DNA of 64,000 nt, from contig DATLSZ010000001.1 of assembly GCA_035533875.1 (NCBI GenBank), forward strand, positions 3,614 through 67,613, given 5' to 3'. Positions 12,592 through 62,090 of this stretch are shown piece after piece (the stretch's first letter is position 1; each line of letters begins with the position of its first letter). The position numbers and the translations under genes are program-made. The stretch is from Candidatus Acidiferrales bacterium (GTDB taxonomy: Bacteria > Patescibacteriota > Microgenomatia > Levybacterales > UBA12049). Below the pieces are notes generated by a model. It did not search any database, was not told the DNA's origin, and worked only from the letters and a program-made list of their open reading frames with translations.

Positions 12592-12600
12592 ATGCAAATG

Positions 12601-12606: not shown

Positions 12607-12654
12607 AACAAACCTTAACGTTTGCTTAAGTGAGGGTATTGTAACAGGTTTTGA

Positions 12655-13257: not shown

Positions 13258-13266
13258 AATTGCAAA

Positions 13267-13275
13267 ATTATACAA
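13267..13275 (-). promoter_or_regulatory. TG-extended -10, leaderless configuration
   Basis: TTGTATAAT, then 9 nt, then ATG 13257. Confidence 0.5.
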
Positions 13276-13331: not shown

Positions 13332-13360
13332 TTGACTCATCATTTGAAAAGATTTAATAT
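13332..13360 (+). promoter_or_regulatory. sigma70-type promoter, leaderless configuration
   Basis: TTGACT-17 nt-TAATAT; ATG 13370 lies 9 nt after the -10. Confidence 0.6.
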
Positions 13361-13369
13361 AGAGGTCTC

Positions 13370-16137: not shown

Positions 16138-16220
16138 ATTCCTCCTTGAATATCAATTATACCAGTGCTTAAGCAACATGCAAAAGGGGAAAATTTCTCG
16201 TTTCTTTGATATAAAACTAC

Positions 16221-18081: not shown

Positions 18082-18088
18082 AATTGTT

Positions 18089-18094
18089 ATTATA
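18089..18094 (-). promoter_or_regulatory. -10 box, leaderless configuration
   Basis: TATAAT, then 7 nt, then ATG 18081 (trhO). Confidence 0.5.
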
Positions 18095-19199: not shown

Positions 19200-19207
19200 C
19201 GGACTAT

Positions 19208-19216
19208 TTTATACCA
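19208..19216 (-). promoter_or_regulatory. TG-extended -10, leaderless configuration
   Basis: TGGTATAAA, then 8 nt, then GTG 19199. Confidence 0.45.
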
Positions 19217-19391
19217 CTCCGCAATCATTTTCAATAAATTAGTATATGGTCATGCTGTTTTAACAATCTACACGAACCGAAATGATTGCTTCGTTAGGTA
19301 TTATACTTATTGCATTTTGAAAGCAGAGGGGTATAAAAACTTAGCCGGAAAGAGTGAAGACACAAAAGTACAAATCTTTTTGTTGTGTATG

Positions 19392-20636: not shown

Positions 20637-21002
20637 CTATTGCGGCTCTATCAGTTCATTTACTTTTTGAAGTAAATCCATGATATCAAATGGTTTGGCG
20701 ATAAAAGCATCTGCGCCGGCTTCCAATATGGATTTCTTAATCGCCGGATGTGCAGATATCATCATAATGGGTATCTGTTTTGTCTTTTTATTCATTTTTA
20801 ATTTCCTGCAAATCTCCCGACCGTCTATACCTGATAACAAGACATCAAGAATAATAAGTTTAGGTTGTTTTTTTTCCGTGATTAGCTTTTCAACGTCATC
20901 GCCGTTTTGGGTTGTTTCTACGGTATAGCCTGAGTCCTCCAAAACAAACCGTAATGCGTCCAAAATATCGAGGTCATCATCTACGACCAGTATTTGCTGC
21001 AT
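20637..21002 (-). CDS. single-domain response regulator (CheY-like receiver)
   Basis: ILVVDDD, LIILDVLLSGIDG, ISAH, KPF. Confidence 0.9.
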   Translation of the reverse strand: MQQILVVDDDLDILDALRFVLEDSGYTVETTQNGDDVEKLITEKKQPKLIILDVLLSGIDGREICRKLKMNKKTKQIPIMMISAHPAIKKSILEAGADAFIAKPFDIMDLLQKVNELIEPQ

Positions 21003-21075
21003 AATTAATTATTATATCCTTGTTTGAATATGCGTGCATTAAGAGTTGTGTAAGAATACATTTGCCAAACTTCCC

Positions 21076-21105: not shown

Positions 21106-21118
21106 GATAATACTGTCC

Positions 21119-22453: not shown

Positions 22454-22462
22454 TGCTATAAT
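22454..22462 (+). promoter_or_regulatory. TG-extended -10, leaderless configuration
   Basis: TGCTATAAT, then 9 nt, then GTG 22472 (tkt). Confidence 0.55.
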
Positions 22463-22471
22463 TGCTCTGTT

Positions 22472-24324: not shown

Positions 24325-25128
24325 TTATAGGTATTTATGGATTATCTTCTGAAGCTGATTATAGAGGCTAGGTGTTGCAGAACAAAAAGGATAATTCTCT
24401 TTCGCTCTTTTTAAATGATCCGTATAATCCAATGTACTGCCATCAAAATTAGTAAATATTCCGCCTGCTTCTTCAACAATTATTTGCGTCCCGACAACAT
24501 CCCAAATGTTTGTATTTCTATGATGTGCTCCACCGTAGGTTCCTCTGGCCAAAAACATACAATCAAGCATACTGCCGCTCGATCGTACATTCCTGCACTG
24601 CAGGATAATATCCTTAAGAATTTGTGATTCTATTTCTGTTCTTTCAGGATCAGATTGGAATCCGTCTACATTGTAGCTAATGAGCATTTTCAACATATTC
24701 TGTTCATTGCTTACATGAATTGCTTTCTTGTTAAGAAATGCCCCTTTACCTTTTTCTGCAGTATAGAGTTCTTTAAAATATGGAAGAACCATTCCTCCAG
24801 CGAGCGGATGATCTTGATACAGTAAGCCCAGTATTGTTGCATACAGTGGTGAAGCGTTAGCAAAATTACTTGTTCCATCAATCGGATCAATGATCCATGT
24901 ATACTCTGAATGATTATCGATTACCCCTGCTTCTTCATCAATAATATTATGAGAAGGATATTTTTCCTTTATTGTATTAACGATATACTTTCCAACTGCT
25001 AAATCTGTTTCTGTTAAGACTTGATTATTATCTCCTGATTTTGTCGTTCCTTGAATTTTTCCGAAATTATCCGTTGCTATTTGAGATGCTTCTGAAAGAA
25101 CCGACGTGATAAAAGAAGAGTAATCCAT
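24325..25128 (-). CDS. inositol monophosphatase family protein (IMPase / possible FBPase)
   Basis: EEAG..., WIIDPIDGTSNF, WDVVGTQIIVEEAGG motifs. Confidence 0.85.
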   Translation of the reverse strand: MDYSSFITSVLSEASQIATDNFGKIQGTTKSGDNNQVLTETDLAVGKYIVNTIKEKYPSHNIIDEEAGVIDNHSEYTWIIDPIDGTSNFANASPLYATILGLLYQDHPLAGGMVLPYFKELYTAEKGKGAFLNKKAIHVSNEQNMLKMLISYNVDGFQSDPERTEIESQILKDIILQCRNVRSSGSMLDCMFLARGTYGGAHHRNTNIWDVVGTQIIVEEAGGIFTNFDGSTLDYTDHLKRAKENYPFCSATPSLYNQLQKIIHKYL

Positions 25129-25134
25129 AGAAGA

Positions 25135-25143
25135 ATTATAGCA
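25135..25143 (-). promoter_or_regulatory. TG-extended -10, leaderless configuration
   Basis: TGCTATAAT, then 6 nt, then ATG 25128. Confidence 0.55.
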
Positions 25144-31934: not shown

Positions 31935-33407
31935 CTATGCAGCGACAGGAAAAGTAGGGATGAGATGTTTTCTGGCAAGATCCATACCCCAGTCAAGTGT
32001 TTCTACAACTACATTATTTGGCGTTACTTCTCTCTCGTCAAAATCTTGGAATACTACTCCTTCACCCATTGCGGCCATTGCAGAACATCTTGTCGCTACG
32101 CTTCTCATATGCGTCCGTGTTGTTTTAAGAGGATCCGTTGGATCAGGTTCAAGTCTTTTATCAACAGCTTCGAATATTGCATCGGAAATTGCCAATTCTC
32201 GTCTTATAGACGACGTATCACCTCTCCTGGATGCAAATTCTTTAATTTCAAATCCTTCTCGTAAAAAGCGATGATCTGCCCTTTCTCCATCCCGAAAATC
32301 AGTAAGTGCAAACAACAACGGCAATACTAAATCTTGATATCCAGCAGCAAGCTTAATTGCGAGTGGCTTTGTTGAGAGAAAGAGCTCCTCTGCTTCTTGC
32401 TGGTTTGGTAGTCTTCCATATTGATGCTCAAAAACTCTCGGTACCGCTTCAAATAAATTAAATTGCGTATTTATCGCAGTGCCAATTCCATCCATGATGA
32501 TACCTTCGGCGTAAGATCCACTGAGAAAACCGTTCTGATGACCAAATCTTGACATATCTTTAAACCAAACAAAGGCTTCATCTTCCGGAGTCCTTGCATC
32601 TTGTGAAAGTCCACGAAGTCTTGCTTCTCGTTCTCCTGCCCATGCATGTGCTCCGGCAAAGTAGGTTTTTTTTACTGCATTTTTAAGTTGCTTTATCCTG
32701 CTTGCAAAGTCTCCTTCTACTGCTGCCAAAGGTTGCAAGACTTGTTCACCCGAAGCGTCTCTTTCACTGGTTTCAGCAATATCGGAGTGAATACCTCTCT
32801 CCCTTCCCCTCCTAACTAAATCTCTTCGTAGATCAACCACTTTTCTCCATACTTCTTCAATAAAAATCGCCGATTGTTCGCTTCGTTCTTCAGTTAAATC
32901 ACCCCAAAACACACGTGCCTCGGCTCTTACTTCTTTTGCTGTAGCACCTTCTCTGGGAGTTAATGGAATGGCAGTATGATGAACAGCAGTAGATCCTGCT
33001 CTGACAATAGGGACAATATTTACTTGATTATCTTTCGGTCCGCGGAGGTCTTTGAGTCCTTTTACTGAAAAAGGACACTCAGCGGCTTTTATTGTGGTCG
33101 CAGCCGTTTCTGTTCCGGTGACGCTCCCCTCTCCATCAGTGACTGATTCACCATGATAGTCCAAACCTGCTGCAGGTGCTAACGCAGACTTGCCAATATG
33201 ATGAACTGTTGACTCGCCTACGTCGCCATTATCCCTCCAGCGAATATGTAAACTTCTTCGGGGCCTGGACAAACCACGACGAACAGAGCCTCTAGCTACT
33301 TGTGAAGGAGCAGACAAAACTTCGCTTACTGGACTCACTGTTCTCCTATCTCGTGGGGTCGCGGAATCGCCCCCTGTTGACACGTTTCTTTCGAATCTCG
33401 CAAACAC
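31935..33407 (-). CDS. orphan protein (~490 aa), disordered Arg/Ser/Pro-rich N-terminus plus helical C-terminal domain, function unknown
   Basis: Long ORF with no motif I recognise. TGCTACAAT (33417-33425, minus) overlaps the track's ATG 33428, so in-frame GTG 33407, 9 nt downstream of the -10, is the likelier start. Confidence 0.6.
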   Translation of the reverse strand: MFARFERNVSTGGDSATPRDRRTVSPVSEVLSAPSQVARGSVRRGLSRPRRSLHIRWRDNGDVGESTVHHIGKSALAPAAGLDYHGESVTDGEGSVTGTETAATTIKAAECPFSVKGLKDLRGPKDNQVNIVPIVRAGSTAVHHTAIPLTPREGATAKEVRAEARVFWGDLTEERSEQSAIFIEEVWRKVVDLRRDLVRRGRERGIHSDIAETSERDASGEQVLQPLAAVEGDFASRIKQLKNAVKKTYFAGAHAWAGEREARLRGLSQDARTPEDEAFVWFKDMSRFGHQNGFLSGSYAEGIIMDGIGTAINTQFNLFEAVPRVFEHQYGRLPNQQEAEELFLSTKPLAIKLAAGYQDLVLPLLFALTDFRDGERADHRFLREGFEIKEFASRRGDTSSIRRELAISDAIFEAVDKRLEPDPTDPLKTTRTHMRSVATRCSAMAAMGEGVVFQDFDEREVTPNNVVVETLDWGMDLARKHLIPTFPVAA

Positions 33408-33416
33408 AACTGTCAA

Positions 33417-33425
33417 ATTGTAGCA
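33417..33425 (-). promoter_or_regulatory. TG-extended -10, leaderless configuration
   Basis: TGCTACAAT, then 9 nt, then in-frame GTG 33407. Confidence 0.5.
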
Positions 33426-34999: not shown

Positions 35000-35005
35000 T
35001 ATAAT
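35000..35005 (+). promoter_or_regulatory. -10 box, leaderless configuration
   Basis: TATAAT, then 6 nt, then ATG 35012. Confidence 0.5.
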
Positions 35006-35011
35006 AAAACG

Positions 35012-36217
35012 ATGAAGCAACGTTTTATTGCAGCAGTCTTTATCGGTATTCTTTGTATCGGCCTGTGGCTGTATCTCTCACTATCCTACCCCGCGACATC
35101 ACCATTCACATCAGCCGGCTATTTTGCGCAACATTTGATAAAACCTCATACCAATCTCAACCAGCGCACCCTCGGCTTTCTCCCCTACTGGAATTTGGAC
35201 TATATCCAATTTCTAAAACCCGAAGATTTGTCTGAAATAAATTACTTCAGTCTTACAGCAGGCAGTGACGGTCATATTCTGCAGGTAGTTAACAACCAGA
35301 ACGATCCCGGCTGGAACGGATGGATCAAGCAGGCAACCAAAAACTTTCTTACCAAGTCTCAAATCATGGGAGCGAGAGTCACTGTCACCATCGCCGCGCA
35401 GGACAATCAGACGATTAATGCTATTTTGAACAGCAACACTGCGCAGCAGAATCTCATCGCAGATATTCTAGAGCAAGTCAAAAAAAGAAACCTCAACGGC
35501 GTCAACATCGACTTTGAATATTCAGGTGCTGCTGATAATTCCCTCCGACAGGAATTCACGTATTTTAGTAAGAAGCTTGCATCGCAACTCAAACAACAGG
35601 ACCCGAACGCGACAGTCTCCCTCAGCATCATGCCGCTATCCGCACGTCAACCGGACTTATTTGATTTTAAGCAACTTGTTCCAATCTATGACCAATTTAT
35701 CGGCATGTCCTATGACTATTATGGAGAAAGTTCAGATATCGCAGGACCCATCGCACCGATGAACGGATTCAAACAAGGAAAATATTTCTTTGATGTCACC
35801 ACAACCTATGCTGATTATGAAAAGGTTATTCCGAAAAACAAACTCATCATGGGAGTCCCCTATTACGGTTGGGAATGGGCTGTTGTAGCTGGCAAGACGA
35901 TAAATAGTCAGACATTTCCCGCAAGTGATCCGGATAGTTATGCGGCTGTTATTTCCTACGCCCGCGCGCGATCAGATAGTGATCTTACCCCAAAGCAATG
36001 TCAGTGGGATGCTGTTGCAGAGGAGTCATGGTGCTGGTTCACGGATAAAACGACAAAGACCGACCATCAGGCATGGATCGCTGATAACCGGATGATCCAG
36101 ACACGATTTGATTTTGCGAAGAAACAGGACTTTGCCGGCATAGCCATCTGGACCTTGGGATTGGACAAGCAGTATCCGGATCTGTGGGACCAACTCGTAA
36201 CGACGTTTGGAAAATAA
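35012..36217 (+). CDS. glycoside hydrolase family 18 (chitinase-like), membrane-anchored
   Basis: Catalytic motif LNGVNIDFEY (DxxDxDxE variant), MSYDYYG. ATG 35012 lies 6 nt after TATAAT; the track's extension 34775-35011 overlaps the upstream gene. Confidence 0.8.
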   Translation: MKQRFIAAVFIGILCIGLWLYLSLSYPATSPFTSAGYFAQHLIKPHTNLNQRTLGFLPYWNLDYIQFLKPEDLSEINYFSLTAGSDGHILQVVNNQNDPGWNGWIKQATKNFLTKSQIMGARVTVTIAAQDNQTINAILNSNTAQQNLIADILEQVKKRNLNGVNIDFEYSGAADNSLRQEFTYFSKKLASQLKQQDPNATVSLSIMPLSARQPDLFDFKQLVPIYDQFIGMSYDYYGESSDIAGPIAPMNGFKQGKYFFDVTTTYADYEKVIPKNKLIMGVPYYGWEWAVVAGKTINSQTFPASDPDSYAAVISYARARSDSDLTPKQCQWDAVAEESWCWFTDKTTKTDHQAWIADNRMIQTRFDFAKKQDFAGIAIWTLGLDKQYPDLWDQLVTTFGK

Positions 36218-36265: not shown

Positions 36266-36294
36266 TTGACGTAGCTCAGCAATAATGATTAGAT
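36266..36294 (+). promoter_or_regulatory. sigma70-type promoter, leaderless configuration
   Basis: TTGACG-17 nt-TTAGAT; ATG 36301 lies 6 nt after the -10. Confidence 0.5.
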
Positions 36295-36300
36295 GAGCTA

Positions 36301-37269
36301 ATGAAGTTGTTCTCACGAGCTTTTCTCTCATTCGCTATCATCTATGCGCTCTGTGTCGTACTGACTATCATTACCCACCAGCCATCTGCCACAGCTGCAA
36401 CGGACAACACCAACGTCGTCATCTCCCAAGTGCAAACAGGCAGTACAGCAGCATCTGATGAGTTTGTTGAACTGTATAATCCTACAAATACAAATATTGA
36501 TTTAACAGGGTGGAGTTTGAAAAGTAAAACAGCATCGCAAAGTGGTTCCGGCACAACTCTGGTTGCGAGTCTATCCGGTACTGTTAGCCCGTATAGCTAC
36601 TTTTTAATTGTGTCTCCCGAATATACAGGAAGTGTTTCACGTGATTTTATGTATAGTTCAGGAAGTCATATTGGAGCTACGAATAATACAGTACTGATAT
36701 ATGACAATACTAATACAACTCCTGTAGACAAAGTCGGCATGGGCTCAGCAGCAGATAAAGAAACCAGTGACGCACCAAATCCAGTTGCCGGAGGAAGTAT
36801 AGAAAGAAAAATAAATGATACCGGAGGAAATGGACTCGATACAGATAATAACGCCAACGATTTTGTTTTACTGTCAACTTCCATGCCGAGAAACAGCGCC
36901 AGTCCCGCGGCACAACCGATCCCAACTCCGACCGATGAACCGACATTGACTCCGGAACCGACAGACACACCAATACCCACTGAAACTCCGGTCCCCACAG
37001 AGGCGCCAACGCTGATCCCAACGGAAATCCCAACGCAAACCCCTACGATTACTCCAACAGAAGTTCCTACAGGAACGCCTGTGCCAACAGTGACTCCTTC
37101 ACCAACTCCTACAATGACACCTACCCCAACTCCACCATCACACATTATTATCAATGAACCCATTACCCCGCGTCTCCACTTTGTCTGTACACAAACCTAT
37201 CGTGTCATCTCAATCTTCGGCTTCCACGTCTCCATTCCCAGCATCCACTGCGGATTTGTTAGAGGGTAA
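36301..37269 (+). CDS. lamin-tail-domain (LTD) protein with Pro/Thr-rich linker
   Basis: Signal/TM, then VVISQVQTGS...DEFVELYNPTNTNIDLTGWSL (LTD signature), then ~70 aa of (P/T/E) repeats. Confidence 0.75.
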   Translation: MKLFSRAFLSFAIIYALCVVLTIITHQPSATAATDNTNVVISQVQTGSTAASDEFVELYNPTNTNIDLTGWSLKSKTASQSGSGTTLVASLSGTVSPYSYFLIVSPEYTGSVSRDFMYSSGSHIGATNNTVLIYDNTNTTPVDKVGMGSAADKETSDAPNPVAGGSIERKINDTGGNGLDTDNNANDFVLLSTSMPRNSASPAAQPIPTPTDEPTLTPEPTDTPIPTETPVPTEAPTLIPTEIPTQTPTITPTEVPTGTPVPTVTPSPTPTMTPTPTPPSHIIINEPITPRLHFVCTQTYRVISIFGFHVSIPSIHCGFVRG

Positions 37270-37428: not shown

Positions 37429-37842
37429 TTACTTTTTGGGCTTGAATTCGAGGGCGCAGGAATTGATGCAATAATGCTTGTTGGTCGGTGATGAACTGTC
37501 ATCAAAAAGATGTCCCAGATGTCCCCCGCAAGTTTTGCAGATCACTTCTGTCCGGTGCATGCCAAAACTCGTATCTTCCTTCAACTCAACCGCAGCATTC
37601 TTCGCAGGATCGGCAAAACTCGGCCAGCCGATAAGTCCCGGCACGGTTGATTCATATTTATCATCGCTTTTAAAGACGACAGTACCGCATCCGGCACAGC
37701 GGTATTCTCCTGTCTCATCATTATGCAGCAGTTCCCCGGATCCTGGTGTCTCAGTCCCCTTCATCCGCAGGACCCGGTACTGCGCAGGAGTCAGCTTCTT
37801 CTTCCAATATTCATCTGATTTCTTCCGCATGTCATCAGCCAT
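37429..37842 (-). CDS. msrB: peptide-methionine (R)-S-oxide reductase
   Basis: CAGCG...GWPSF...CKTCGGHLGHLFDD. ATG 37842 lies 8 nt after TGCTACAAT. Confidence 0.9.
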   Translation of the reverse strand: MADDMRKKSDEYWKKKLTPAQYRVLRMKGTETPGSGELLHNDETGEYRCAGCGTVVFKSDDKYESTVPGLIGWPSFADPAKNAAVELKEDTSFGMHRTEVICKTCGGHLGHLFDDSSSPTNKHYCINSCALEFKPKK

Positions 37843-37850
37843 ACACCCAT

Positions 37851-37859
37851 ATTGTAGCA
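37851..37859 (-). promoter_or_regulatory. TG-extended -10, leaderless configuration
   Basis: TGCTACAAT, then 8 nt, then ATG 37842 (msrB). Confidence 0.55.
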
Positions 37860-37983: not shown

Positions 37984-37992
37984 TGCTACTAT
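37984..37992 (+). promoter_or_regulatory. TG-extended -10, leaderless configuration
   Basis: TGCTACTAT, then 7 nt, then ATG 38000 (PBP1A). Confidence 0.55.
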
Positions 37993-37999
37993 AAGAGGT

Positions 38000-40282
38000 A
38001 TGCACCCACGCTCCCGTCTAAAAAAATCCGTGTATACCTACAAACCCCATGGCATAAAACGGCTGAAAAAAATCAACTGGAAATCCTCATTCCAGAAAAT
38101 AATAAAAGGCCACAAACGTGCTCTTTTGATTATTTTCATCATCTTTATCATCATCATGATTCTCATTCCACCGCTCACCTACCTTTACTTTGCCAAAGAT
38201 CTCAAGAATAAAGAAAGTGTGATGAACCGGCAGCAGACCGGACTCACCCTTCTTGACCGCGACGGCAAACAATTCTATACCTTCGATCTGGCAAAAACGA
38301 TCACCTACATCCCGATCACCGACATCCCCAAGTCCGCGCAAGATGCAGTTGTCTCGGCAGAGGACAAAAATTTCTACACCAATCCCGGCTTCTCAATCAC
38401 CGGCATCATCCGCGCGTTTCTTGCCGATATCTTTGCTGGCCACATCGTCCAGGGCGGCTCCACCATCACACAGGAGCTTGCCAAAAATGCCTTCCTGAGT
38501 TCTTCCCGCAATGTCCTCCGCAAGTATCAGGAGCTGGTCTTGGCAGCGGAGTTGAACAGACGATTCAGCAAACAAGACATCCTGGAAATGTATCTCAACT
38601 CCGTATATTTCGGCGAAGGTGCTTTTGGCATCCAGAACGCGTCGGAAGCATATTTCGGCATCCCGGCAAAGCAGCTCGATCTCGCACAAGCCGCGCTTCT
38701 TATCGGCATCCTTCCTGCGCCATCCGCGTATTCTCCGATCTCCAATCCGCCGGATCTTGCGATAGAGCGGCAGAAATTTGTACTCAGTCAGATGGTTCAG
38801 AATGGTTACATCACACAAGATCAGGCAACTCAGGCTGAGAGTGAACCGCTGCATTATAATCCCAACAAAATACAATCCGGCAACATCCTCGCTCCGCATT
38901 TCGCGATCTATATCAAAAATCAATTGATCAAGCAGTACGGCGAGGAGCGGGTTATCCGTGACGGCTTCCGTGTGACAACGACGCTTGACAGCAATCTGCA
39001 AAAATATGCCGAAGGCTCGGTCAACACCCAAGTGACTCGACTCAAGTATGATCATGCTACCAACGGCGCGCTTGTCGCGCTTGATCCAAAAAACGGTCAG
39101 ATCCTCGCGATGGTCGGCAGTTATGATTTCACTGACACGAGCTTCGGTCAGACCAATATGGCCATCACGCCCCGCCAGCCAGGATCATCCTTCAAACCGA
39201 TTATCTACGGCCGCGCACTTGAAGATCATCTCATTACTCCGGCGACAATTCTGCAGGATGTGAAGACGACATTTCCCGGCAATTATACGCCACATGATTA
39301 TGATTACCGTTACCGCGGGCCTGTCACAGTCCGGCGTGCTTTGGCGAATTCACTCAATATCCCAGCGGTTGAGGTGATGGAAAAAGTCGGCATCCCCAAT
39401 GGGCTTGATGAAGCACAAAAGCTCGGCATCTCCACACTGACTGCCGGCAACTATGGACTATCCCTCGTCCTCGGCGCGGGTGAAGTGCCGCTGCTGCAGA
39501 TGACCAACGCGTATGCGACGTTTGCTGATCAAGGAGTGTATCATGACACAACCGGTATCATGGATATCAAAGATAAGTACGGGAGTACGGTCTCCACGCC
39601 GACCAATTTCTTTTCTTTTTTACAAACGCTTAATCCGCTAACGTGGTTCAGCTCAACACCGAGTGATAACAAACAAGTGATGAGCAAAGAGACGGCGTTC
39701 CTTCTCTCATCGATTCTCTCTGACAACAATACACGATCGGAGGAATTCAGCGGTGCGCTCACGATCAATCGCCCTGCAGCGGTGAAAACGGGAACAACAT
39801 CTGATTACAAGGATGCGTTGACGATCGGTTACACGCCGAGTTTGGTGGTGGGTGTCTGGGTCGGCAACAATGATGACAAGCCGATGGACAATATCGCGGG
39901 ATCGCTGGGTGCCGCGCCGATCTGGCGCAATGTGATGGAATATGATTTGATGGGCAAACCCATTGAGCATTTTGAGGTGCCGACGTTTATCGTGAGTGAG
40001 ACGGTCTGCCCGGGAGCTGCAGCCGGTTATATCCATACCTACACAGAGTATTTCATCGCCGGGACACAGACAAACTCTTGCGGCCAGCCGACCATCTTCC
40101 CGACCTTCACCCCAACGCCGACACCCAACGGTCCGACACCAACACCGCAACCCGGACCAACAAATAAACCCAACCAGCCAACAAATACTCCGGCTCCACA
40201 ACCAACAAGTACACCAGCGGTCTTACCTACCCCGACTTCAATTTTGTTGCCAACTCTCCCCATCCCTACACCGACGATCTAA
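38000..40282 (+). CDS. class A penicillin-binding protein (transglycosylase + transpeptidase), Pro/Thr-rich C-terminal tail
   Basis: GT51 motifs EDKNFYTNPG, GGSTITQEL, RKYQE; transpeptidase SSFKP (SxxK), SLN, KTGTT. Confidence 0.95.
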   Translation: MHPRSRLKKSVYTYKPHGIKRLKKINWKSSFQKIIKGHKRALLIIFIIFIIIMILIPPLTYLYFAKDLKNKESVMNRQQTGLTLLDRDGKQFYTFDLAKTITYIPITDIPKSAQDAVVSAEDKNFYTNPGFSITGIIRAFLADIFAGHIVQGGSTITQELAKNAFLSSSRNVLRKYQELVLAAELNRRFSKQDILEMYLNSVYFGEGAFGIQNASEAYFGIPAKQLDLAQAALLIGILPAPSAYSPISNPPDLAIERQKFVLSQMVQNGYITQDQATQAESEPLHYNPNKIQSGNILAPHFAIYIKNQLIKQYGEERVIRDGFRVTTTLDSNLQKYAEGSVNTQVTRLKYDHATNGALVALDPKNGQILAMVGSYDFTDTSFGQTNMAITPRQPGSSFKPIIYGRALEDHLITPATILQDVKTTFPGNYTPHDYDYRYRGPVTVRRALANSLNIPAVEVMEKVGIPNGLDEAQKLGISTLTAGNYGLSLVLGAGEVPLLQMTNAYATFADQGVYHDTTGIMDIKDKYGSTVSTPTNFFSFLQTLNPLTWFSSTPSDNKQVMSKETAFLLSSILSDNNTRSEEFSGALTINRPAAVKTGTTSDYKDALTIGYTPSLVVGVWVGNNDDKPMDNIAGSLGAAPIWRNVMEYDLMGKPIEHFEVPTFIVSETVCPGAAAGYIHTYTEYFIAGTQTNSCGQPTIFPTFTPTPTPNGPTPTPQPGPTNKPNQPTNTPAPQPTSTPAVLPTPTSILLPTLPIPTPTI
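40251..40282 (+). repeat. direct repeat copy 1 (3' end of PBP1A gene including stop)
   Basis: CAACTCTCCCCATCCCTACACCGACGATCTAA. Confidence 0.85.
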
Positions 40283-40294: not shown

Positions 40295-40308
40295 GAGATA
40301 ATAAAATA

Positions 40309-41052
40309 ATGGCAGAAGGTGGTATTCCTACAGAAAATCCGCACAGTGGATTACAAGTACGAGTTGAGAACATACATGGTATGTACGAATTTTTGGGCGA
40401 TGAAAACGCTCCGGAGAGCTCGGTTCTTGACAGAACTGCTCTTAATAACGATCCCCTTTTGCAACGAATTACCTCTACAATTGCCGTTGATGCGCAGGAC
40501 CAAACCGCAATGATGCAAACACAATTTTCCCACTCAGCTGCAAAATTGGATAAAGATCTCGGTTATTATTCTGTAGAACAACGAGACAAAATGAAAGAAA
40601 AGTTACTCAGAGCAGGCTTTAGAAACGGTGGAGCTATCGGAGATCGAGAGTTCTACACAGTCACTGATCCTGCAAGTGGAGAACTCGGTAAGTTTTTTAT
40701 CGACTATGGTCCAGCGAGTCAGATGCAAGATGCTGCTGAAAAAGGAGCATTTATCGATTCACCTGATACTGTCCCGCCTTATATCCGTGAACGCTTAGGA
40801 GATACAGACCCGGAATCGTTACAACGAGAACTGGATAGTGAGATGGGCGCTCGGAATAGACATATTTTGCTTGGCTTGCCTGTTGAAACAGATGCGGGTG
40901 AAGCAGTTTTTGGTAACAAACTACAAGCATATGCACGCGTCTTCGCGTCTGTCGGGAAAGCGTTGTATGCAACAGAAGATGTCCCCGAACCGGACAAGAC
41001 GATCGTACTCCGCCCCCCGGCAGAAGAACTCGTGATTGATTTTGATTATTAA
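40309..41052 (+). CDS. orphan protein, function unknown (inside a direct-repeat-flanked insert)
   Basis: 247-aa ORF with its own TTGTATAAT (40286-40294); no signal peptide and no motif recognised. Confidence 0.6.
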   Translation: MAEGGIPTENPHSGLQVRVENIHGMYEFLGDENAPESSVLDRTALNNDPLLQRITSTIAVDAQDQTAMMQTQFSHSAAKLDKDLGYYSVEQRDKMKEKLLRAGFRNGGAIGDREFYTVTDPASGELGKFFIDYGPASQMQDAAEKGAFIDSPDTVPPYIRERLGDTDPESLQRELDSEMGARNRHILLGLPVETDAGEAVFGNKLQAYARVFASVGKALYATEDVPEPDKTIVLRPPAEELVIDFDY

Positions 41053-45091: not shown

Positions 45092-45120
45092 TTGACTTCT
45101 CCCCTTCTTTTTTCCATAGT
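45092..45120 (+). promoter_or_regulatory. sigma70-type promoter, leaderless configuration
   Basis: TTGACT-17 nt-CATAGT; ATG 45127 lies 6 nt after the -10. Confidence 0.55.
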
Positions 45121-45126
45121 TAAAGT

Positions 45127-45507
45127 ATGAGTAAGAATAAACTTCCTCAGTGGGCTACGACGATGACGCCATTTTCCAAATACCTCGCACTTTCAATGCT
45201 TGTCATTTTACCTGTTCTCGCGTTTTTTTACGGCACGTATTATCAACGGCAGATCGATAAGAAAAAACCACAGCAGGGAACAATTATATTTAAAATACTC
45301 CCCACGCGATCACCGTCTGCTTTTCCATCGATTTCTCAACCGATTTCGGCGTCTCCCTCCCAACCAGCAAGTGGCAGCATAAAATGCAATACCAACGCCG
45401 ACTGTCCGCCGGACTATCTCTGTACACAAGTGGGACCAATTGTTTATACACCACATAAGAAACCCCAACTGACATGCTGGAAAAAAGGCTCTGCTATGCC
45501 TTTATAA
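45127..45507 (+). CDS. small membrane-anchored Cys-containing protein
   Basis: TM LALSMLVILPVLAFFYG, Ser/Pro linker, 4-Cys C-terminal module. ATG lies 6 nt after CATAGT. Confidence 0.6.
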   Translation: MSKNKLPQWATTMTPFSKYLALSMLVILPVLAFFYGTYYQRQIDKKKPQQGTIIFKILPTRSPSAFPSISQPISASPSQPASGSIKCNTNADCPPDYLCTQVGPIVYTPHKKPQLTCWKKGSAMPL

Positions 45508-46287: not shown

Positions 46288-47286
46288 TTATTGAAATTTC
46301 CCAAAGAGGTATTGCGCGCGCTTTTTGTTATGTTCTGTCACATCAACAACAACAATTCCGCGGTCAAACTGCCCGTATATAACAACAGCAGACAATGGAG
46401 CAAGGAGTATCGCCGGAATCGCCAGTAAATCCTCCTCACCATTTACGGCTATCAGCTGCTCTGTGTGGTTTGTTAAATAATTGGAAATTGCTGCAAATAT
46501 CGTTTTCGCTGCTTTTTGAGTAATTGTCCCTGCGGGGTTTTCCGTTGTTCTGCGTGTCATTTCAGAAAATGAATTGGCACGTGTGGGCTCTAAATTCTGC
46601 CTGCGCGTCTTACCGTCGGTGATATTGATCTCCGCCAGTCTTCCTGCCTGCTGAGCGGACGCTGCCACAATATCGCCGACTGCGATCAAAATCGTACGCG
46701 GCTGAAGTAATGAAATAACTTCATGCATATCGGTATAGACCGGCCCGATCGGATGTCGCATCTCATCACGCGCTTCTTCGGGAAGAACATACACTTCCTG
46801 TCTTTCAAATAATTTGCTGTAGGACTTCCCTTCCCGGTCGATAAGTCCCTTGCGGATCCGCGCTGAAGAGATCATCTCACCGTCATCACCAAGAACAAAA
46901 GGAACTGTGATGATCTCTAAAGATTTAAAACCCCGTTTATCCCGTTCCTCATTTATTTTCAGCGCATTTGGCTTGGTGCTTTCGGTGACAAAGATCGCGT
47001 CAATAGAATCTGAATCGATACTCGTTCCGTAGATGTCATTGATCTGGATTATTTCTGAGCGATCGGTAAAACCATTGTCTGAAAGGAATTGTACAACAGC
47101 TTTTTCGCGGTCATTATATTCTTCAATAAGCAGCGCCAATTTTTTATTTTCATACAATTCCACAGTCGCGATACCGATAGTAACGTTCTCGGATTGTTCA
47201 AAAGCAGTTGTTAATAATTTTCGATGTCCGGCATGAAAGCGGTCAAACGTCCCGCCGACCACTGAGAGGTGAAATTGATACGACAT
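46288..47286 (-). CDS. fusion of archaeal-type phosphopantetheine adenylyltransferase and DUF359 (GTP-dependent dephospho-CoA kinase family)
   Basis: N-terminus VVGGTFDRFHAGHRKLL (cytidylyltransferase HxGH). C-terminal half VGDIVAAS...ITDGKTRR...NGEEDLLAIP...VIYGQFDRGIVVV matches DUF359. ATG 47286 lies 7 nt after TATACT. Confidence 0.75.
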   Translation of the reverse strand: MSYQFHLSVVGGTFDRFHAGHRKLLTTAFEQSENVTIGIATVELYENKKLALLIEEYNDREKAVVQFLSDNGFTDRSEIIQINDIYGTSIDSDSIDAIFVTESTKPNALKINEERDKRGFKSLEIITVPFVLGDDGEMISSARIRKGLIDREGKSYSKLFERQEVYVLPEEARDEMRHPIGPVYTDMHEVISLLQPRTILIAVGDIVAASAQQAGRLAEINITDGKTRRQNLEPTRANSFSEMTRRTTENPAGTITQKAAKTIFAAISNYLTNHTEQLIAVNGEEDLLAIPAILLAPLSAVVIYGQFDRGIVVVDVTEHNKKRAQYLFGKFQ

Positions 47287-47293
47287 ACACAAA

Positions 47294-47322
47294 AGTATAC
47301 TGTGCTGAGCCAAATTCCGCAA
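47294..47322 (-). promoter_or_regulatory. sigma70-type promoter, leaderless configuration (PPAT-DPCK fusion)
   Basis: TTGCGG-17 nt-TATACT, then 7 nt, then ATG 47286. Confidence 0.55.
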
Positions 47323-55527: not shown

Positions 55528-55557
55528 TTGCTAAATCATTCGTTTTTGTTATATAAT
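55528..55557 (+). promoter_or_regulatory. sigma70-type promoter, leaderless configuration (ECF sigma gene)
   Basis: TTGCTA-18 nt-TATAAT; ATG 55566 lies 8 nt after the -10. Confidence 0.6.
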
Positions 55558-55565
55558 CAGACCAT

Positions 55566-56096
55566 ATGCATATTGTTGAGAAAATCCTCCAAGGCGACGC
55601 CCATGCAGTAGAGACATTCTATCAGCAATACTCACCCGGCATCCTCAGATATTTAAAAAGCAAGCTGCCCAAAACAGAAGACGCGCAGGAAATTCTCAAT
55701 GATGTATTCCTCGATGCAGTTGACGGACTGCCGTCGCTTAACAAACAAACAAGCGTCAAATCTTGGATCTATCAAATCGCGCATTATAAAATAGTGAACT
55801 TTTACCGCAAACAGAAAATTAAATCCCTCATTTTCTCACAATTTCCCTACCTGAAAATTGTTGATGAGGAAGTACATCAACCGGAATTCCAGCTGGAAAA
55901 AGAAGAATTAAAAATGAGATTGCAAATGGCACTTGAGAAACTCTCCCAGAAGTATCAGCAAATACTCCGCATGCATTACATCGAAGAATTGCCGGTCAAG
56001 ATTATTTCACTGCAATTAAACCTGTCATTCAAGGCAACCGAATCACGTCTCTACCGGGCCAGAATGCAGTTTATAAAAAATTATAACCTTATGTAA
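55566..56096 (+). CDS. ECF-type RNA polymerase sigma factor
   Basis: Region 2 (DAQEILNDVFLD, SWIYQIAHYKIVNFYR) and region 4 HTH (LRMHYIEELPVKIISLQLNLSFKATESRLYRAR). Confidence 0.85.
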   Translation: MHIVEKILQGDAHAVETFYQQYSPGILRYLKSKLPKTEDAQEILNDVFLDAVDGLPSLNKQTSVKSWIYQIAHYKIVNFYRKQKIKSLIFSQFPYLKIVDEEVHQPEFQLEKEELKMRLQMALEKLSQKYQQILRMHYIEELPVKIISLQLNLSFKATESRLYRARMQFIKNYNLM

Positions 56097-56761: not shown

Positions 56762-58228
56762 CTACTTTTTAGTCACTCTCGGACCTTTTTTGGTATCTTC
56801 CAACTCATATCCTAACTTTTCAAGCTTTGAACGGATCTGATCTGCGGCATTAAATTTCCTCTGCTTTCGTAAATGCTGGCGCTCTTCAACTAACTGTTGG
56901 ATATGTCCGGGGAGAATTTGTTGCGCGTTGCGAATCAATAAACTCATTTCCTGCAAATTCAATCCCAGCACACGGTCCATCTTAAATAATAATCGCATCT
57001 TGGGTCCACTCGGATATTGAGACTTTACCACTTCCCACATGACCGCAAGTGCTTGCGATGTATTAAGGTCATCATTCACAGCATCCAAAAACCGCTTTTC
57101 AAAATCTTCAAAAATACTCGCCGGCATTTTCCCCTGACTTTCCGAAGGTTCTTCCCAACGACTAATATCCAAGACTAATTTTTTGTAAGCATTTTGCGCG
57201 GCATCAAGTGCATTAAAAGTAAAATTCATTTCCTGCCGGTAATGCGTCTGGAGATATAAATAACGCAATGCCAGAACATCATAACCTTCTTTTTCCAGAT
57301 CATACACTGTATACAGATTGCCCTGACTTTTACTCATCCTCTCGCCGTTAACGAGAATAAACGCGCCATGTAACCAATAGTCTACAAATTTCTTCCCAGT
57401 CGCCGCTTCTGCTTGTGCTATTTCATTAGGATGATGTGTTTCTTTTAGATCAATACCGCCGGTATGAATATCAAATGTCTCTCCCAGATATTTCATACTC
57501 ATTGCAGAACATTCGATATGCCAGCCTGGGAATCCTATCCCCCACGGACTTTTCCACTCCATTTGGCGTTTTGACACTTCATCTGCTTTCTTTCCGGATT
57601 GTGCCAGATATTCTTTGAACGATACTCCACCCGGATAAGAAAATTTCCATAAAGCAAAATCACGCTGATTTTTTTTCTCAAGATTTTCCTCAACCCGGGC
57701 AATTTTGATCTTATCTAAGCTGGATAACGCGCCATACTGAGGGAATTTGGTAGTATCAAAATAGACGCCATCCGAAGTCTTATACGTAAATCCTTTTTCT
57801 TCAAGCTTTTTTACCAGGTCAATCTGTTCTTTTATGTGGTCGGTTGCTTTGGCAAATTTTATTGGTTTCTCCAAATTAAGCTTGTCAAAATCCTTAAGAA
57901 AAACATCGCCATAAAATTCCGCAATCTCCCACGCTGTCTTGCCTTCTTTCTTTGCCGCTTTTTCCATCCGGTCTTCACCTAAATCCGCATCACCTAAGTT
58001 GTCACCGGTGAGATGGCCGACATCAGTCAAATTCATGATGTAATTGACAGTATATCCGTTATATTCCAGAACACGTTTTAAAATATCAGCCATTGTATAC
58101 GTCCGGAAATTGCCAATGTGGGCAAATGAATACACAGTCGGTCCACACGTATACATCCCAACTTGTAGTGGATGAATCGGTTTAAATTCTTCAACTTTTT
58201 TTGTGAGAGAGTTATAAAGATTTAGCAT
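56762..58228 (-). CDS. cysS: cysteine--tRNA ligase
   Basis: CGPTVYSFAHIGNFR (HIGH), KMSKSQGN (KMSKS), WHIECS. Confidence 0.95.
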   Translation of the reverse strand: MLNLYNSLTKKVEEFKPIHPLQVGMYTCGPTVYSFAHIGNFRTYTMADILKRVLEYNGYTVNYIMNLTDVGHLTGDNLGDADLGEDRMEKAAKKEGKTAWEIAEFYGDVFLKDFDKLNLEKPIKFAKATDHIKEQIDLVKKLEEKGFTYKTSDGVYFDTTKFPQYGALSSLDKIKIARVEENLEKKNQRDFALWKFSYPGGVSFKEYLAQSGKKADEVSKRQMEWKSPWGIGFPGWHIECSAMSMKYLGETFDIHTGGIDLKETHHPNEIAQAEAATGKKFVDYWLHGAFILVNGERMSKSQGNLYTVYDLEKEGYDVLALRYLYLQTHYRQEMNFTFNALDAAQNAYKKLVLDISRWEEPSESQGKMPASIFEDFEKRFLDAVNDDLNTSQALAVMWEVVKSQYPSGPKMRLLFKMDRVLGLNLQEMSLLIRNAQQILPGHIQQLVEERQHLRKQRKFNAADQIRSKLEKLGYELEDTKKGPRVTKK

Positions 58229-58236
58229 ATGGTTGC

Positions 58237-58242
58237 ATTATA
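58237..58242 (-). promoter_or_regulatory. -10 box, leaderless configuration (cysS)
   Basis: TATAAT, then 8 nt, then ATG 58228. Confidence 0.55.
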
Positions 58243-58292
58243 GCTGAAGCAAGCACGAATGCAAAGTATTTGAAGTTCCAACAAATAATTGG

Positions 58293-58925
58293 TTATCCCG
58301 ATGTTCCCCGGTTGACTTCTGTCTTTGTCCTTGCTAGTTGTACTGCCATTGGCTGCTGCTGCTTTTTACCAAACATTGATCCTGTCTTTTTTCCTGCGGG
58401 CAACGCAACTTCTTCTTTCTTTTTTTCTTCCTCTTCTTTCTTCCGTCGCTCTTCCTCTTCTTCCTCCTGCTTTCGTTGTTCCTCTTTCTGCTTTCGCATT
58501 TGTCGAGCTTTTTCCATCTCCTGATCCAAACCTATTGTGGCACTGTTTATGCCGGCAGCATTTTGTGCAGATTTGAATTTCATGCTGTAGTTAGCAAATA
58601 ATTCACTTCTGATTTTTTCCATTTTTGCCTGTTCTTCCGGAGATTGATTGGTGTTGCCGCTTGCTGTCTTTGACTGCGCTCCTCCCGTGTTGGAAGTATG
58701 CTGCCCAGCGGCAGCTTGAGGGTCATCATTATCTGTGTCTTGATCTTGTCCTGAAGGAGTAAGGCCATACAATTGATCTACAATTGCTTTCGTGTCATCT
58801 TTTACTTGCTGACTCGCTTGTGCAGTTGCCGCTTTTGCTACATTCTTTGCCGCCTGACTGACCGGCATTCCCTGCTCAAAACTTGCACCTTCGTCATCAT
58901 TGTTAAAAGGATTAAAGTTTGGCAT
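58293..58925 (-). CDS. hypothetical protein, disordered with Glu/Lys-rich coiled segment
   Basis: 210-aa ORF containing KQKEEQRKQEEEEEERRKKEEEEKKKEE. ATG 58925 lies 6 nt after TGATAGTAT. Confidence 0.55.
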   Translation of the reverse strand: MPNFNPFNNDDEGASFEQGMPVSQAAKNVAKAATAQASQQVKDDTKAIVDQLYGLTPSGQDQDTDNDDPQAAAGQHTSNTGGAQSKTASGNTNQSPEEQAKMEKIRSELFANYSMKFKSAQNAAGINSATIGLDQEMEKARQMRKQKEEQRKQEEEEEERRKKEEEEKKKEEVALPAGKKTGSMFGKKQQQPMAVQLARTKTEVNRGTSG

Positions 58926-58931
58926 ACTTCT

Positions 58932-58940
58932 ATACTATCA
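58932..58940 (-). promoter_or_regulatory. TG-extended -10, leaderless configuration
   Basis: TGATAGTAT, then 6 nt, then ATG 58925. Confidence 0.5.
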
Positions 58941-59687: not shown

Positions 59688-60656
59688 TTATGCGTGCAGT
59701 TCTTTGCTTATCATCTCCGCAACAGATAGTACGTGTAATTTTGGAAAATACTTTTCCTCCGAGATAAACACCGTATCGGTGACATACACGCGGTCAATGC
59801 TGGATTCCTGCAATAGCTCCGGTGCCTCTTCGGAAAAGACGGCATGAGTTGCAAAAACATCACATGAGACAACACCGTTGTCTTTCAGAAGCTGCGCCGA
59901 CTGCACAACTGTATTGCCGCTTGAGACCATATCATCTACTATAAGTGCCCGTTTGCCGGGGAGATCTGAAGGATTGAGTGGCCCTTCAAATTGTTTTATA
60001 GTAATATCCCCTGTCCGTAAATCCCGATCTTTTACCGTTGCTATCCACGGAATGCCACTGAGCATTTCAGACATCTGCTCGATCCGTCTCAGTCCTCCCA
60101 TATCGGGTGAAACAAGGATTGTGTCTTTTAGGAAGTCATCAGGATTATTGCTATCAACAAGTGTATTAAACGCTTTACTCTGTATCCGCTCTGCAAAAAG
60201 AGGAAGTGCTGAAAGATGTGTTATCGGAATATGAAACAATTCCGGAATTTTGATGGAGTGCAGATCAAGAGCTATCACTTTGTCAACTTTCAATGATTCC
60301 AAAAATCGGATCATCACATCAAGAGAAACTACTTCTCCTTCACGAAAAACATGATCCTGCCGCTGATACCCAAGATATGGGATGACGGCAGTTACTGATT
60401 TTGCACCATTTCGCCTCAATGCATCGATGATAAAAAAGAGCTCAATGTAATTCTGGTCCACAGGTGTATTGGTCGATTGGATAACAACAGTGTTTTCTTC
60501 AAGAACATTGGCATTGAGCTTGATCCGCCGTTCTCCGTCAGGAAAAATCATGGTCTCAATCGGAGATAGTTTTGTCGTAAGGTCCTTTGCAATTGCTTCT
60601 GCGAGCGGCTTGTTGGAAGAGCCTGAAAAAAGTTTCATGAAGCTATTGTACCACAC
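59688..60656 (-). CDS. prs: ribose-phosphate pyrophosphokinase paralog (divergent copy)
   Basis: FPDGERRIK, AVIPYLGYQRQD, ALIVDDMVSSGNTV. GTG 60656 lies 1 nt after the upstream stop; ATG 60638 is an alternative start. Confidence 0.85.
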   Translation of the reverse strand: MWYNSFMKLFSGSSNKPLAEAIAKDLTTKLSPIETMIFPDGERRIKLNANVLEENTVVIQSTNTPVDQNYIELFFIIDALRRNGAKSVTAVIPYLGYQRQDHVFREGEVVSLDVMIRFLESLKVDKVIALDLHSIKIPELFHIPITHLSALPLFAERIQSKAFNTLVDSNNPDDFLKDTILVSPDMGGLRRIEQMSEMLSGIPWIATVKDRDLRTGDITIKQFEGPLNPSDLPGKRALIVDDMVSSGNTVVQSAQLLKDNGVVSCDVFATHAVFSEEAPELLQESSIDRVYVTDTVFISEEKYFPKLHVLSVAEMISKELHA

Positions 60657-61733: not shown

Positions 61734-62030
61734 CTATTTTCCTCCGCCGAGCATCCCGGCAAGACCTCCGAGACCACCTGTCATTGACTGCAATTTTTTA
61801 GCCGCGACTTCTTGTGATTTTTTGACAGCTTCATTGACTGCTTCACGGATATCATCATCGGATTTACCATTGGTTTTTATTTCAAGAACTTTTTGGTCAC
61901 CGCTGATTTTGACATAGACACCACGCTTGCTTACCTCTACAATCTCTGACTGCAACTCTCGCTGCATCGCCATTGCTTGATCTCGCATCTTTTTGAGTTC
62001 TCCAATTTGTCCAAAAGGATTAAAAGCCAT
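61734..62030 (-). CDS. ybaB: YbaB/EbfC nucleoid-associated protein
   Basis: 98 aa; MRDQAMAMQRELQS...VKISGDQKVLEIK pattern; position beside dnaX. Confidence 0.85.
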   Translation of the reverse strand: MAFNPFGQIGELKKMRDQAMAMQRELQSEIVEVSKRGVYVKISGDQKVLEIKTNGKSDDDIREAVNEAVKKSQEVAAKKLQSMTGGLGGLAGMLGGGK

Positions 62031-62090
62031 ACAATCACCTCGCTTTCCCTGATTCTTAAGTTCAATTATAACTGCGATGCCGCGATGTCT

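Follow-up and report, generated by a model that had tools for sequence, protein, structure and literature searches.

A 64,000-nucleotide stretch of contig DATLSZ010000001.1 (assembly GCA_035533875.1), hereafter the window, displayed promoter-type -10 hexamers ending 6-9 nt upstream of the start codons of many of its genes. This arrangement very probably represents sigma-70-type promoters that abut the coding sequence, with transcription starting on the start codon or 1-3 nt before it. Such genes are referred to below as leaderless-type, a status that we infer from sequence. The first-pass annotation of the window had noted a -10 box at this distance before at least 20 genes, and all 20 sites that it listed were found again at their positions. 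The accumulation of hexamers in front of starts was confirmed as real and far above chance.

The host is, judging from protein similarity, an uncultured, ultra-small bacterium belonging to the Candidate Phyla Radiation (CPR, Patescibacteria) close to Levybacteria (Microgenomates). A search with the product of the 56762-58228 gene against one genome per species gave best matches of 62-85% identity. Those with informative names were metagenome-assembled genomes (MAGs) of Levyibacteriota/Levybacteria, Microgenomates and Patescibacteria; several other labels were plainly unreliable. In the NCBI taxonomy, Levyibacteriota belong to the Microgenomates group of the Patescibacteria group. The same protein was taken to be a cysteinyl-tRNA synthetase (CysRS, gene cysS) from its size and conservation, rather than from a family-library run. 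The GC content of the window is about 42%, and TGA acts as a stop codon: it terminates open reading frames (ORFs), and protein families align over their full length. Rfam and tRNA scans found no rRNA or tRNA gene in the window.

Positional enrichment of -10 hexamers

Genes were called with a self-trained, crude ORF caller that takes the first ATG of an open frame as start and is blind to upstream sequence. Enrichment was counted over the 64 window genes obtained in this way, a strict match being a hexamer close to TATAAT with a spacer of 6-9 nt to the start. Strict matches were found at 18 genes, compared to 3.4 +/- 1.8 after shuffling of each upstream region and 4.4 +/- 2.0 after rotation, where hexamers were kept and their position randomised. 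The highest count in 2000 randomised trials was 13. At other upstream offsets, the background amounted to about 0.7 strict hexamers per offset. Likewise, a strict hexamer preceded 28% of gene starts versus 2% of internal in-frame ATGs, and the relaxed pattern TANNNT with spacers of 5-10 nt occurred at 24 of the 64 genes, where 11.4 were expected. Among the 53 non-internal genes of the window, 16 displayed a strict match. With curated starts, about 20-25 of 65 window genes were leaderless-type. The corresponding classes comprised about 25 leaderless-type genes, about 8 very-short-leader genes (-10 hexamer at 11-14 nt), about 5 with a strong Shine-Dalgarno (SD) site, about 9 tightly coupled internal genes and about 18 with none of these features.

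The first-pass annotation had suggested a genome-wide histogram of -10-to-start distances as a check; drawn for the window and for related loci, this histogram was not flat. Distances peaked at 6-9 nt in the window, and in close relatives (22 loci, 249 genes) a sharp mode was observed at 6 nt, where 36 matches compared to 2.4 per offset in the background. In Patescibacteria that are more distant, 26 matches were counted at 6 nt over a background of 3. A second bump was observed at 11-14 nt (11 matches in the window), with a peak at 11 nt in relatives. The motif occurred at 18-19% of all genes in loci labelled Parcubacteria or distant Microgenomates, versus 2-4% of genes in loci of similar GC labelled DPANN archaea, Desulfobacteraceae, Ignavibacteriaceae or Clostridia. 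Applied to 50 kb of E. coli K-12, the pipeline produced a clean SD peak and no -10 peak, and a -10 peak was likewise absent from two Clostridia-labelled loci.

Promoter anatomy and operon position

Partner elements were examined in genes of the window and of 57 Patescibacteria loci, which were clustered into families, with one positive member drawn from each (68 families). TTG preceded the hexamer at a distance of exactly 17 nt in 21.3 of these families (31%), versus about 1.5 (about 2%) for intragenic -10-like hexamers. This preference was confined to a single spacing, since TTG stayed at background at the adjoining ones. The TGn extension was found in 29% of the families versus 5.6% in controls, and the recurrent TGCTAYAAT-like element pointed out earlier at five sites of the window was present as described. 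Sigma-70-type promoters are characterised by a TATAAT-like -10 with A2 and T6, a TTGnnn -35 at 17 +/- 1 nt and an optional TGn. The hexamers agreed with this description, and the -35 was conserved at orthologues of cysS, prs and the ECF sigma gene described below. These observations support the view that the hexamers are sigma-70 promoters and not ribosome sites.

A clear relationship was also observed with operon position. Among genes starting less than 25 nt after an upstream gene, the motif occurred at 1 of 9 in the window and 4 of 56 in relatives, compared to about 30-35% of other genes. SD-like sites, for their part, were commoner at operon-internal genes (14 of 56 in relatives); in the window, tightly packed internal genes generally displayed neither signal. 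This distribution, together with the promoter partners, differs from the non-SD ribosome-binding sites (RBSs) of group B genomes. It corresponds to group C genomes as defined with GeneMarkS-2, in which a Pribnow-like motif lies at a short, fixed distance (about 6-10 nt) before gene starts, genes that are first in their operon carry it while internal ones depend on an RBS or on coupling, and at least about 25% of transcription units are concerned. A pyrimidine (T or C) at position -1, which would mark a YR start site, was considered as well. It preceded 14 of 17 leaderless-type starts and was equally common before other genes, and this mark was dropped because it did not discriminate between them.

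Conservation at orthologous genes

Conservation of these promoters extended to orthologous genes. At cysS, about 18 loci (CysRS 62-85% identical) keep TTGAAT or TTGCCA, 17 nt, TATAAT, GCAnnnAT and ATG. In about 14 orthologous loci, prs is preceded by (TG)nTACAAT at 6-7 nt from ATG, several of them with TTG at 17 nt, and orthologues of msrB displayed TATAAT, TAAAAT or TACAAT 6-9 nt before ATG. Likewise, TATACT, 7 nt and ATG were kept in three orthologues of the gene starting at 47286, and TAGTAT or TATTAT was found 6 nt before ATG in two orthologues of the gene starting at 58925 (loci L006 and L004).

The gene for an extracytoplasmic function (ECF) sigma factor provided the most extended conservation. 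In 11 orthologues, the block AAGTCGTnnTTTTTTGCTAAATCATTCGWTTTT (33 nt) is followed by TATAAT, exactly 6 nt and ATG. This block (55520-55551 in the window; loci L004-L019) was near-invariant in 10 loci whose sigma proteins are 57-76% identical, and it was more conserved than the coding sequence. In the window itself, the loss of 1 nt has changed the ancestral ATG, located 6 nt from the -10, to ATA. The frame is restored by a new ATG lying 2 nt further downstream, which lengthens the spacer to 8 nt and shortens the protein by one residue. As read from this alignment, it is a small case of start-codon turnover at a leaderless-type gene. The high conservation of the block is accounted for only in part by -35 hexamers that overlap and diverge (TTGCTAA/TTAGCAA), and its conserved GTCGT and TCATTCG may form a candidate operator. 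The block was also examined as an autoregulated promoter of the ECF type (AAC...CGT); this was rejected, as no arrangement had the right spacing.

At the level of gene families the distribution was bimodal. Some families with 9-16 members were 0% positive, others 55-73% positive, and 36 of 127 families were majority-positive. Judging from these comparisons, the leaderless-type architecture is a conserved property of the Levybacteria-like clade, and it was seen in Parcubacteria-labelled loci as well.

Start codons and Shine-Dalgarno sites

The proposed starts were compared to protein domains and to public gene calls. For the proposed, shorter proteins, domain matches in Pfam and NCBIfam start between residues 1 and 9. 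Residues 1-115 of the 60638 protein match profile positions 1-115 of Pribosyltran_N, Response_reg begins at residue 3 (12591) and residue 4 (21002), UPF0176_N at residue 6 (18081), and the NCBIfam transketolase equivalog profile aligns from residue 2 of the protein starting at GTG 22472. Public calls on matching metagenome contigs, among which the PBP1A protein was found again, had identical starts at 35012, 36301, 38000, 40309, 45127 and 47286; for 37842, two of three contigs agreed. The earlier remark that naive longest-ORF starts at TTG or GTG fall inside promoters held at 8696, 12597, 13275, 18111, 37860 and 47322.

With an SD site taken as at least 4-5 nt of complementarity to the anti-SD located 5-10 nt before the start, the SD core was absent before 18 of the 20 listed starts; the other two (13370 and 38000) displayed AGAGGT 2-3 nt from ATG, too close to act as an SD site. 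The lineage is nevertheless not SD-free, and canonical SD sites (GGAGGTGAT) serve a minority of window genes. Sites of the AGGAGGTG type precede 5222, 10744, 16137, 50766 and 62030 at the usual spacing, and the GGAGGTGAT site of the ybaB-like gene was conserved in 16 orthologous loci. In view of these conserved sites, the anti-SD of the host is probably intact.

Proposed transcription start and rival explanations

From the observed enrichment, promoter hallmarks, operon dependence and orthologue conservation we infer where transcription starts and how translation proceeds. In the proposed scheme, the -10 (TATAAT, TACAAT or TATACT, often TGn-extended) would end 6-9 nt before ATG or GTG. Across 49 bacteria with mapped transcription start sites (TSSs), these centre 7 bp downstream of the -10 (PMC12641261). 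Initiation at the seventh nucleotide after the -10 would, with a spacer of 6 nt, place +1 on the A of ATG, and spacers of 7-9 nt would produce leaders of 1-3 nt. Since leaders of 0-3 nt have no room for an SD site, translation would follow the leaderless route: by analogy with Actinobacteria and Deinococcus, the ribosome would bind the 5'-terminal AUG of first-gene mRNAs. Leaderless-type units would then represent about 30-50% of the transcription units of the window, depending on -10 strictness and on how units are counted. The earlier proposal that these mRNAs begin at or within 2-3 nt of the start codon was supported by the promoter hallmarks and by the spacing conserved in orthologous loci, mostly of exactly 6 nt.

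Three other explanations were considered. One is a composition artefact, since upstream regions are AT-rich, about 11 of 64 genes carry TANNNT by chance in any 6-nt offset window, and the frame-closing TAA in TATAAT could mimic enrichment next to the first ATG. This was tested and rejected, and its probability is close to nil: shuffle and rotation nulls were surpassed by more than 6 standard deviations, an in-frame TAA predicts spacers of 2, 5, 8 and 11 nt where the observed mode is 6, control genomes of similar GC gave nothing with the same pipeline, and both the co-occurrence of -35 and TG elements and the conservation at orthologues speak against it. It is also very unlikely that the hexamer is a non-SD ribosome-binding or translation-enhancer motif of the Bacteroidetes type (group B), lying in a longer 5' untranslated region and having no promoter function. 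The hexamer does occupy the 6-9 nt zone expected of an RBS, and many window genes are devoid of an SD site. Yet, a translation motif needs neither a TTG exactly 17 nt upstream nor a TG one base upstream, and it should precede operon-internal genes, of which only 5 of 65 displayed the hexamer. Moreover, other genes use and conserve canonical SD sites that match a normal anti-SD, so that the hexamer can be explained without invoking a separate AT-rich RBS.

A closer competitor accepts the promoters as real and supposes that most transcripts carry leaders of about 2-8 nt, translated by an unknown short-leader initiation, in which case "leaderless" would be approximate. We consider it improbable, if less so than the preceding two. 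Window spacers spread over 6-9 nt, the second bump lies at 11-14 nt (peak at 11 in relatives), and the ECF sigma promoter has an 8-nt spacer in the window versus 6 nt in its orthologues, all of which are in its favour. Opposed to it are the mode of relatives, sharply at 6 nt, which places +1 on the A of ATG, and the short leaders themselves, which show no alternative signal. Furthermore, leaders of 0-5 nt are conventionally classed as leaderless in transcriptome studies.

Several points weigh against promoters that abut the coding sequence and start transcription at the codon. Half of the window spacers are 8-9 nt and not 6, and many transcripts may carry leaders of 2-3 nt, which are as likely as no leader, or the polymerase may select its start flexibly. 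A generic -35/-10 (sigma-70) scan of 45-64 kb returned 37 sites versus 40.8 in shuffles; raw counts are at shuffle level, and the signal lies solely in where the sites stand with respect to starts. Of the 20 listed sites, two or three are weak or face a competing SD-led start. The start at 33407 competes with an in-frame GTG at 33338, preceded by GGAG 4 nt upstream and called on public contigs, and the 10762 site may mark where an 18-nt leader preceding the SD-led ATG 10744 begins. Three listed starts are GTG, a codon that works poorly on leaderless mRNA in E. coli. Finally, the gene caller and start rule are crude, and taxon labels on related MAG records are noisy.

Relation to known systems

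Leaderless initiation is well known as a mechanism from Actinobacteria, Deinococcus and archaea. The architecture observed here resembles that of group C genomes, e.g. Mycobacterium tuberculosis, Streptomyces, Corynebacterium and Deinococcus deserti, where a Pribnow box lies 6-8 nt from first-in-operon starts, 25-50% of transcripts are leaderless and SD sites serve elsewhere (PMC6028130). Group C is common among Actinobacteria (90%) and Deinococcus-Thermus (97%), and few Proteobacteria and Firmicutes belong to it (PMC6028130). These lineages are mostly of high GC with TSS maps, as are (in GC) almost all group C genomes using genetic code 11 (MetaGeneMark-2 preprint, 10.1101/2022.07.25.500264), in contrast to the present code-11 CPR bacterium of 42% GC. 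The motif also differs from the minimal group C TANNNT, being a near-full TATAAT that is often accompanied by a TTG -35 at 17 nt and a TG extension. A second comparison is offered by group C Mycoplasma of low GC (code 4), with 30-60% of transcripts predicted as leaderless (10.1101/2022.07.25.500264). They share with the present case a reduced genome, low to middle GC and a promoter motif next to the start, but belong to another phylum, and TGA is a stop codon here.

Group B genomes are similar in their few SD sites and an AT-rich signal near the start. Yet, their motif also occurs at operon-internal genes and is not a promoter, unlike the present hexamers with their -35 and TG partners and their avoidance of internal genes. 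Within CPR, a Parcubacteria subgroup has lost the anti-SD, bS1 is short (3-4 domains) and several ribosomal proteins are missing (PMC9297842). That subgroup likewise departs from SD-led initiation (PMC9297842), in contrast to the present lineage, where GGAGGTGAT is conserved and leaderless-type initiation would coexist with SD use. No report of leaderless genes in CPR (Patescibacteria, Saccharibacteria, Microgenomates, Parcubacteria, TM7x) was found in the literature searched, which is not proof of their absence; a TM7x transcriptome preprint did not mention promoters or untranslated regions, and N. lyticus was the one CPR species in that literature with TSSs inferred from RNA-seq. A group C architecture in a code-11, Levybacteria-like CPR bacterium is an extension of range and introduces no new principle.

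Individual sites and putative regulatory repeats

Coordinates are collected in Table 1; for minus-strand sites, the first number given in the first-pass annotation was the 3' base of the hexamer. At 14 of the 20 listed sites, the hexamer matched TATAAT at five positions or more, with A2 and T6, 6-9 nt before the start. The six others were weaker: 13370 (TAATAT), 36301 (TTAGAT), 38000 (TACTAT), 45127 (CATAGT), 58925 (TAGTAT) and 10105 (TAAAAT, no -35). Support for them came from a TTGAC-type -35 at 17-18 nt (13370, 36301 and 45127; at 36301 along with the public start call), a TG extension (38000) or orthologue conservation (58925). Sites 33407, 36301 and 10105 were flagged as weak or ambiguous; at 33407, the extended -10 could instead drive a 72-nt, SD-containing leader to GTG 33338. 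Five candidates were added to the list, i.e. 21002(-), 21119(+), 40309(+), 60638(-) and 10762(-).

Table 1. Promoters, start codons and repeats in the window; positions on the minus strand are given in the direction of transcription within the third column, and candidates that the first-pass annotation did not list are marked as added
Feature	Position (strand)	Elements
ECF sigma gene	55528..55568 (+)	-35 TTGCTA 55528-55533, 18 nt, TATAAT 55552-55557, 8 nt, ATG 55566
432-aa protein, no family match	1016..1033 (+)	TATAAT 1016-1021, 9 nt, ATG 1031
Gene at ATG 13370	13332..13372 (+)	-35 TTGACT 13332-13337, 17 nt, weak TAATAT 13355-13360, 9 nt
Transketolase	22454..22474 (+)	extended -10 TGCTATAAT 22454-22462, 9 nt, GTG 22472
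GH18-like protein	35000..35014 (+)	TATAAT 35000-35005, 6 nt, ATG 35012
Gene at ATG 36301	36266..36303 (+)	-35 TTGACG 36266-36271, 17 nt, weak TTAGAT 36289-36294, 6 nt
PBP1A	37984..38002 (+)	TGCTACTAT 37984-37992, 7 nt, ATG 38000
Gene at ATG 45127	45092..45129 (+)	-35 TTGACT 45092-45097, 17 nt, CATAGT 45115-45120, 6 nt
MacA-like efflux adaptor	8685..8729 (-)	TATAAT 8702-8697, 9 nt, ATG 8687; TTAAGCA-N4-TTAA 8729-8715 over -35 position
140-aa gene	10103..10143 (-)	TAAAAT 10117-10112, 6 nt, ATG 10105; TTAAGCA-N3-TTAA 10143-10130 over -35 position
OmpR/PhoB-family response regulator	12589..12629 (-)	TATTAT 12606-12601 (9 nt) or TATCAT 12603-12598 (6 nt), ATG 12591; TTAAGCA-N4-TTAA 12629-12615 over -35 position
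Gene at ATG 13257	13255..13275 (-)	TGTTATAAT..., extended -10 TGtATAAT region: TATAAT 13272-13267 after TTG, 9 nt
UPF0176/rhodanese protein	18079..18094 (-)	TATAAT 18094-18089 after TGa, 7 nt, ATG 18081
Polysaccharide deacetylase	19197..19234 (-)	-35 TTGAAA 19234-19229, 17 nt, TAAAAT 19211-19206 (alternative -10 TATAAA 19213-19208), spacer 6-8 nt, GTG 19199
Inositol monophosphatase family	25126..25143 (-)	TGCTATAAT 25143-25135, 6 nt, ATG 25128
Gene at GTG 33407, start ambiguous	33405..33425 (-)	TGCTACAAT 33425-33417, 9 nt
MsrB/SelR	37840..37859 (-)	TGCTACAAT 37859-37851, 8 nt, ATG 37842
CTP_transf_like + DUF359	47284..47322 (-)	-35 TTGCGG 47322-47317, 17 nt, TATACT 47299-47294, 7 nt, ATG 47286
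Putative cysS	58226..58265 (-)	-35 TTTGCA/TTGCAT 58265-58259, TATAAT 58242-58237, 8 nt, ATG 58228
210-aa protein, no family match	58923..58937 (-)	TAGTAT 58937-58932, 6 nt, ATG 58925
Stand-alone response-regulator receiver (added)	21000..21016 (-)	TATAAT 21016-21011, 8 nt, ATG 21002
DUF4147/MOFRL, glycerate-kinase-like (added)	21106..21121 (+)	GATAAT 21106-21111, 7 nt, ATG 21119
Ribose-phosphate pyrophosphokinase, prs (added)	60636..60653 (-)	TGGTACAAT 60653-60645, 6 nt, ATG 60638
Gene at ATG 40309 (added)	40297..40311 (+)	GATAAT 40297-40302, 6 nt; second TATAAT 14 nt upstream of ATG
Gene at ATG 10762, ambiguous (added)	10760..10774 (-)	TATACT 10774-10769, 6 nt; in-frame ATG 10744 preceded by GGAGGTGA
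Contrast case, leadered gene	16135..16161 (-)	TATAAT 16161-16156, 18-nt leader, SD AAGGAGG 16147-16141, ATG 16137
Contrast case, YbaB/EbfC	62028..62041 (-)	SD GAGGTGAT 62041-62034, 3 nt, ATG 62030
Period-7 arrays	7302-7337, 11881-11913, 48214-48258, 54283-54315, 58949-58979, 59648-59689	
Period 9-24 arrays	27185-27265, 37895-37917, 63651-63719	
Arrays in related loci, examples	L016 9127-9213, L038 3075-3131, L044 9942-10008	
TCTGAG/TCCGAG-rich segments	6482-6530(-), 7258-7300(-), 27225-27268(+), 61636-61680(-), 63651-63700(-)	

The direct repeat TTAAGCA-N3/4-TTAA(G) occurred exactly three times in the window, compared to 0.12 expected by shuffling, each copy lying over the -35 position of a promoter (genes at 8687, 10105 and 12591). 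An OmpR/PhoB-type two-component system adjoins these repeats, with the regulator at 12591 and a histidine kinase at 10818..11816. The repeat is likely a response-regulator binding box, and from this layout its three genes look like a small autoregulated regulon.

Two neighbouring paralogues share a near-identical upstream segment (TCATTGCA...CTGCAAAAGGTATAYTGTGC) at 42700-42752(+) and 43713-43765(+). Their products (282 and 432 aa) both have signal-peptide-like N-termini, and a -10 hexamer TATATT or TATACT lies 11-12 nt before ATG, implying a leader of about 5 nt. On the minus strand, 47524-55495 holds a complete mevalonate-pathway cluster whose genes are tightly coupled and mostly devoid of SD sites. 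It encodes HMG-CoA reductase, an HMG-CoA synthase/thiolase-like pair, GHMP kinases, diphosphomevalonate decarboxylase, a prenyltransferase and a NUDIX protein, the latter being possibly the isopentenyl diphosphate isomerase, as suggested by its Pfam NUDIX match.

Tandem arrays in intergenic DNA

Short-period tandem arrays, mostly of 7 nt, were abundant in the roughly 7 kb of intergenic DNA of the window, where 12 were found versus 0.6 expected. Patescibacteria relatives displayed 0.9-1.3 arrays per kb of intergenic DNA, a richness that the E. coli control did not share. Array sequences are A/T-rich and vary from one array to another. Most arrays occupy same-strand gaps preceding genes with neither a -10 hexamer at 6-9 nt nor an SD site, and there is a tendency for them to begin at the upstream stop codon or to end at or just before the downstream start codon. 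Some gaps contain two arrays that are mutual reverse complements. Cyanobacterial short tandemly repeated repetitive (STRR) sequences are near to these heptamer arrays in kind. Five genes without -10 and SD have a recurrent TCTGAG/TCCGAG-rich sequence abutting their ATG (e.g. ...TTCTGAGTTTTCCGAACT-ATG), which might represent a form of the tandem arrays or an upstream element of its own. Among described repeats, TAACTGA of Beggiatoaceae (PMC4679880) is also one of the nearest to the heptamer arrays.

Significance for CPR bacteria

CPR/Patescibacteria account for a substantial part of bacterial diversity. Nearly all that is known of them comes from MAGs, hence a reliance on automated gene calls. 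A tentative extension, which we regard as possible and less than probable, is that the leaderless trait is CPR-wide, covering both Microgenomates and Parcubacteria. One third to one half of transcription units would then be leaderless and about 10% of genes would have a canonical SD site. A third class would lie behind anchored A/T-rich heptamer arrays. These would be an intercistronic element not described before, serving as a region of non-SD initiation or else as a terminator/insulator. Such a CPR-specific expression grammar would possibly be tied to the reduced ribosomes of these bacteria (bS1 of 3-4 domains, missing bL9/uL30).

If at least one third of genes are indeed leaderless, start prediction tuned to SD sites would misplace many N-termini, and promoter geometry would offer a simple correction. 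Promoters, and hence regulons, would be readable next to start codons, as exemplified by the TTAAGCA repeats over three -35 elements. The translation apparatus, with its reduced ribosome, would have to handle 5'-terminal AUGs routinely, which would bear on the ideas that leaderless initiation is ancestral or that it is linked to ribosome simplification.

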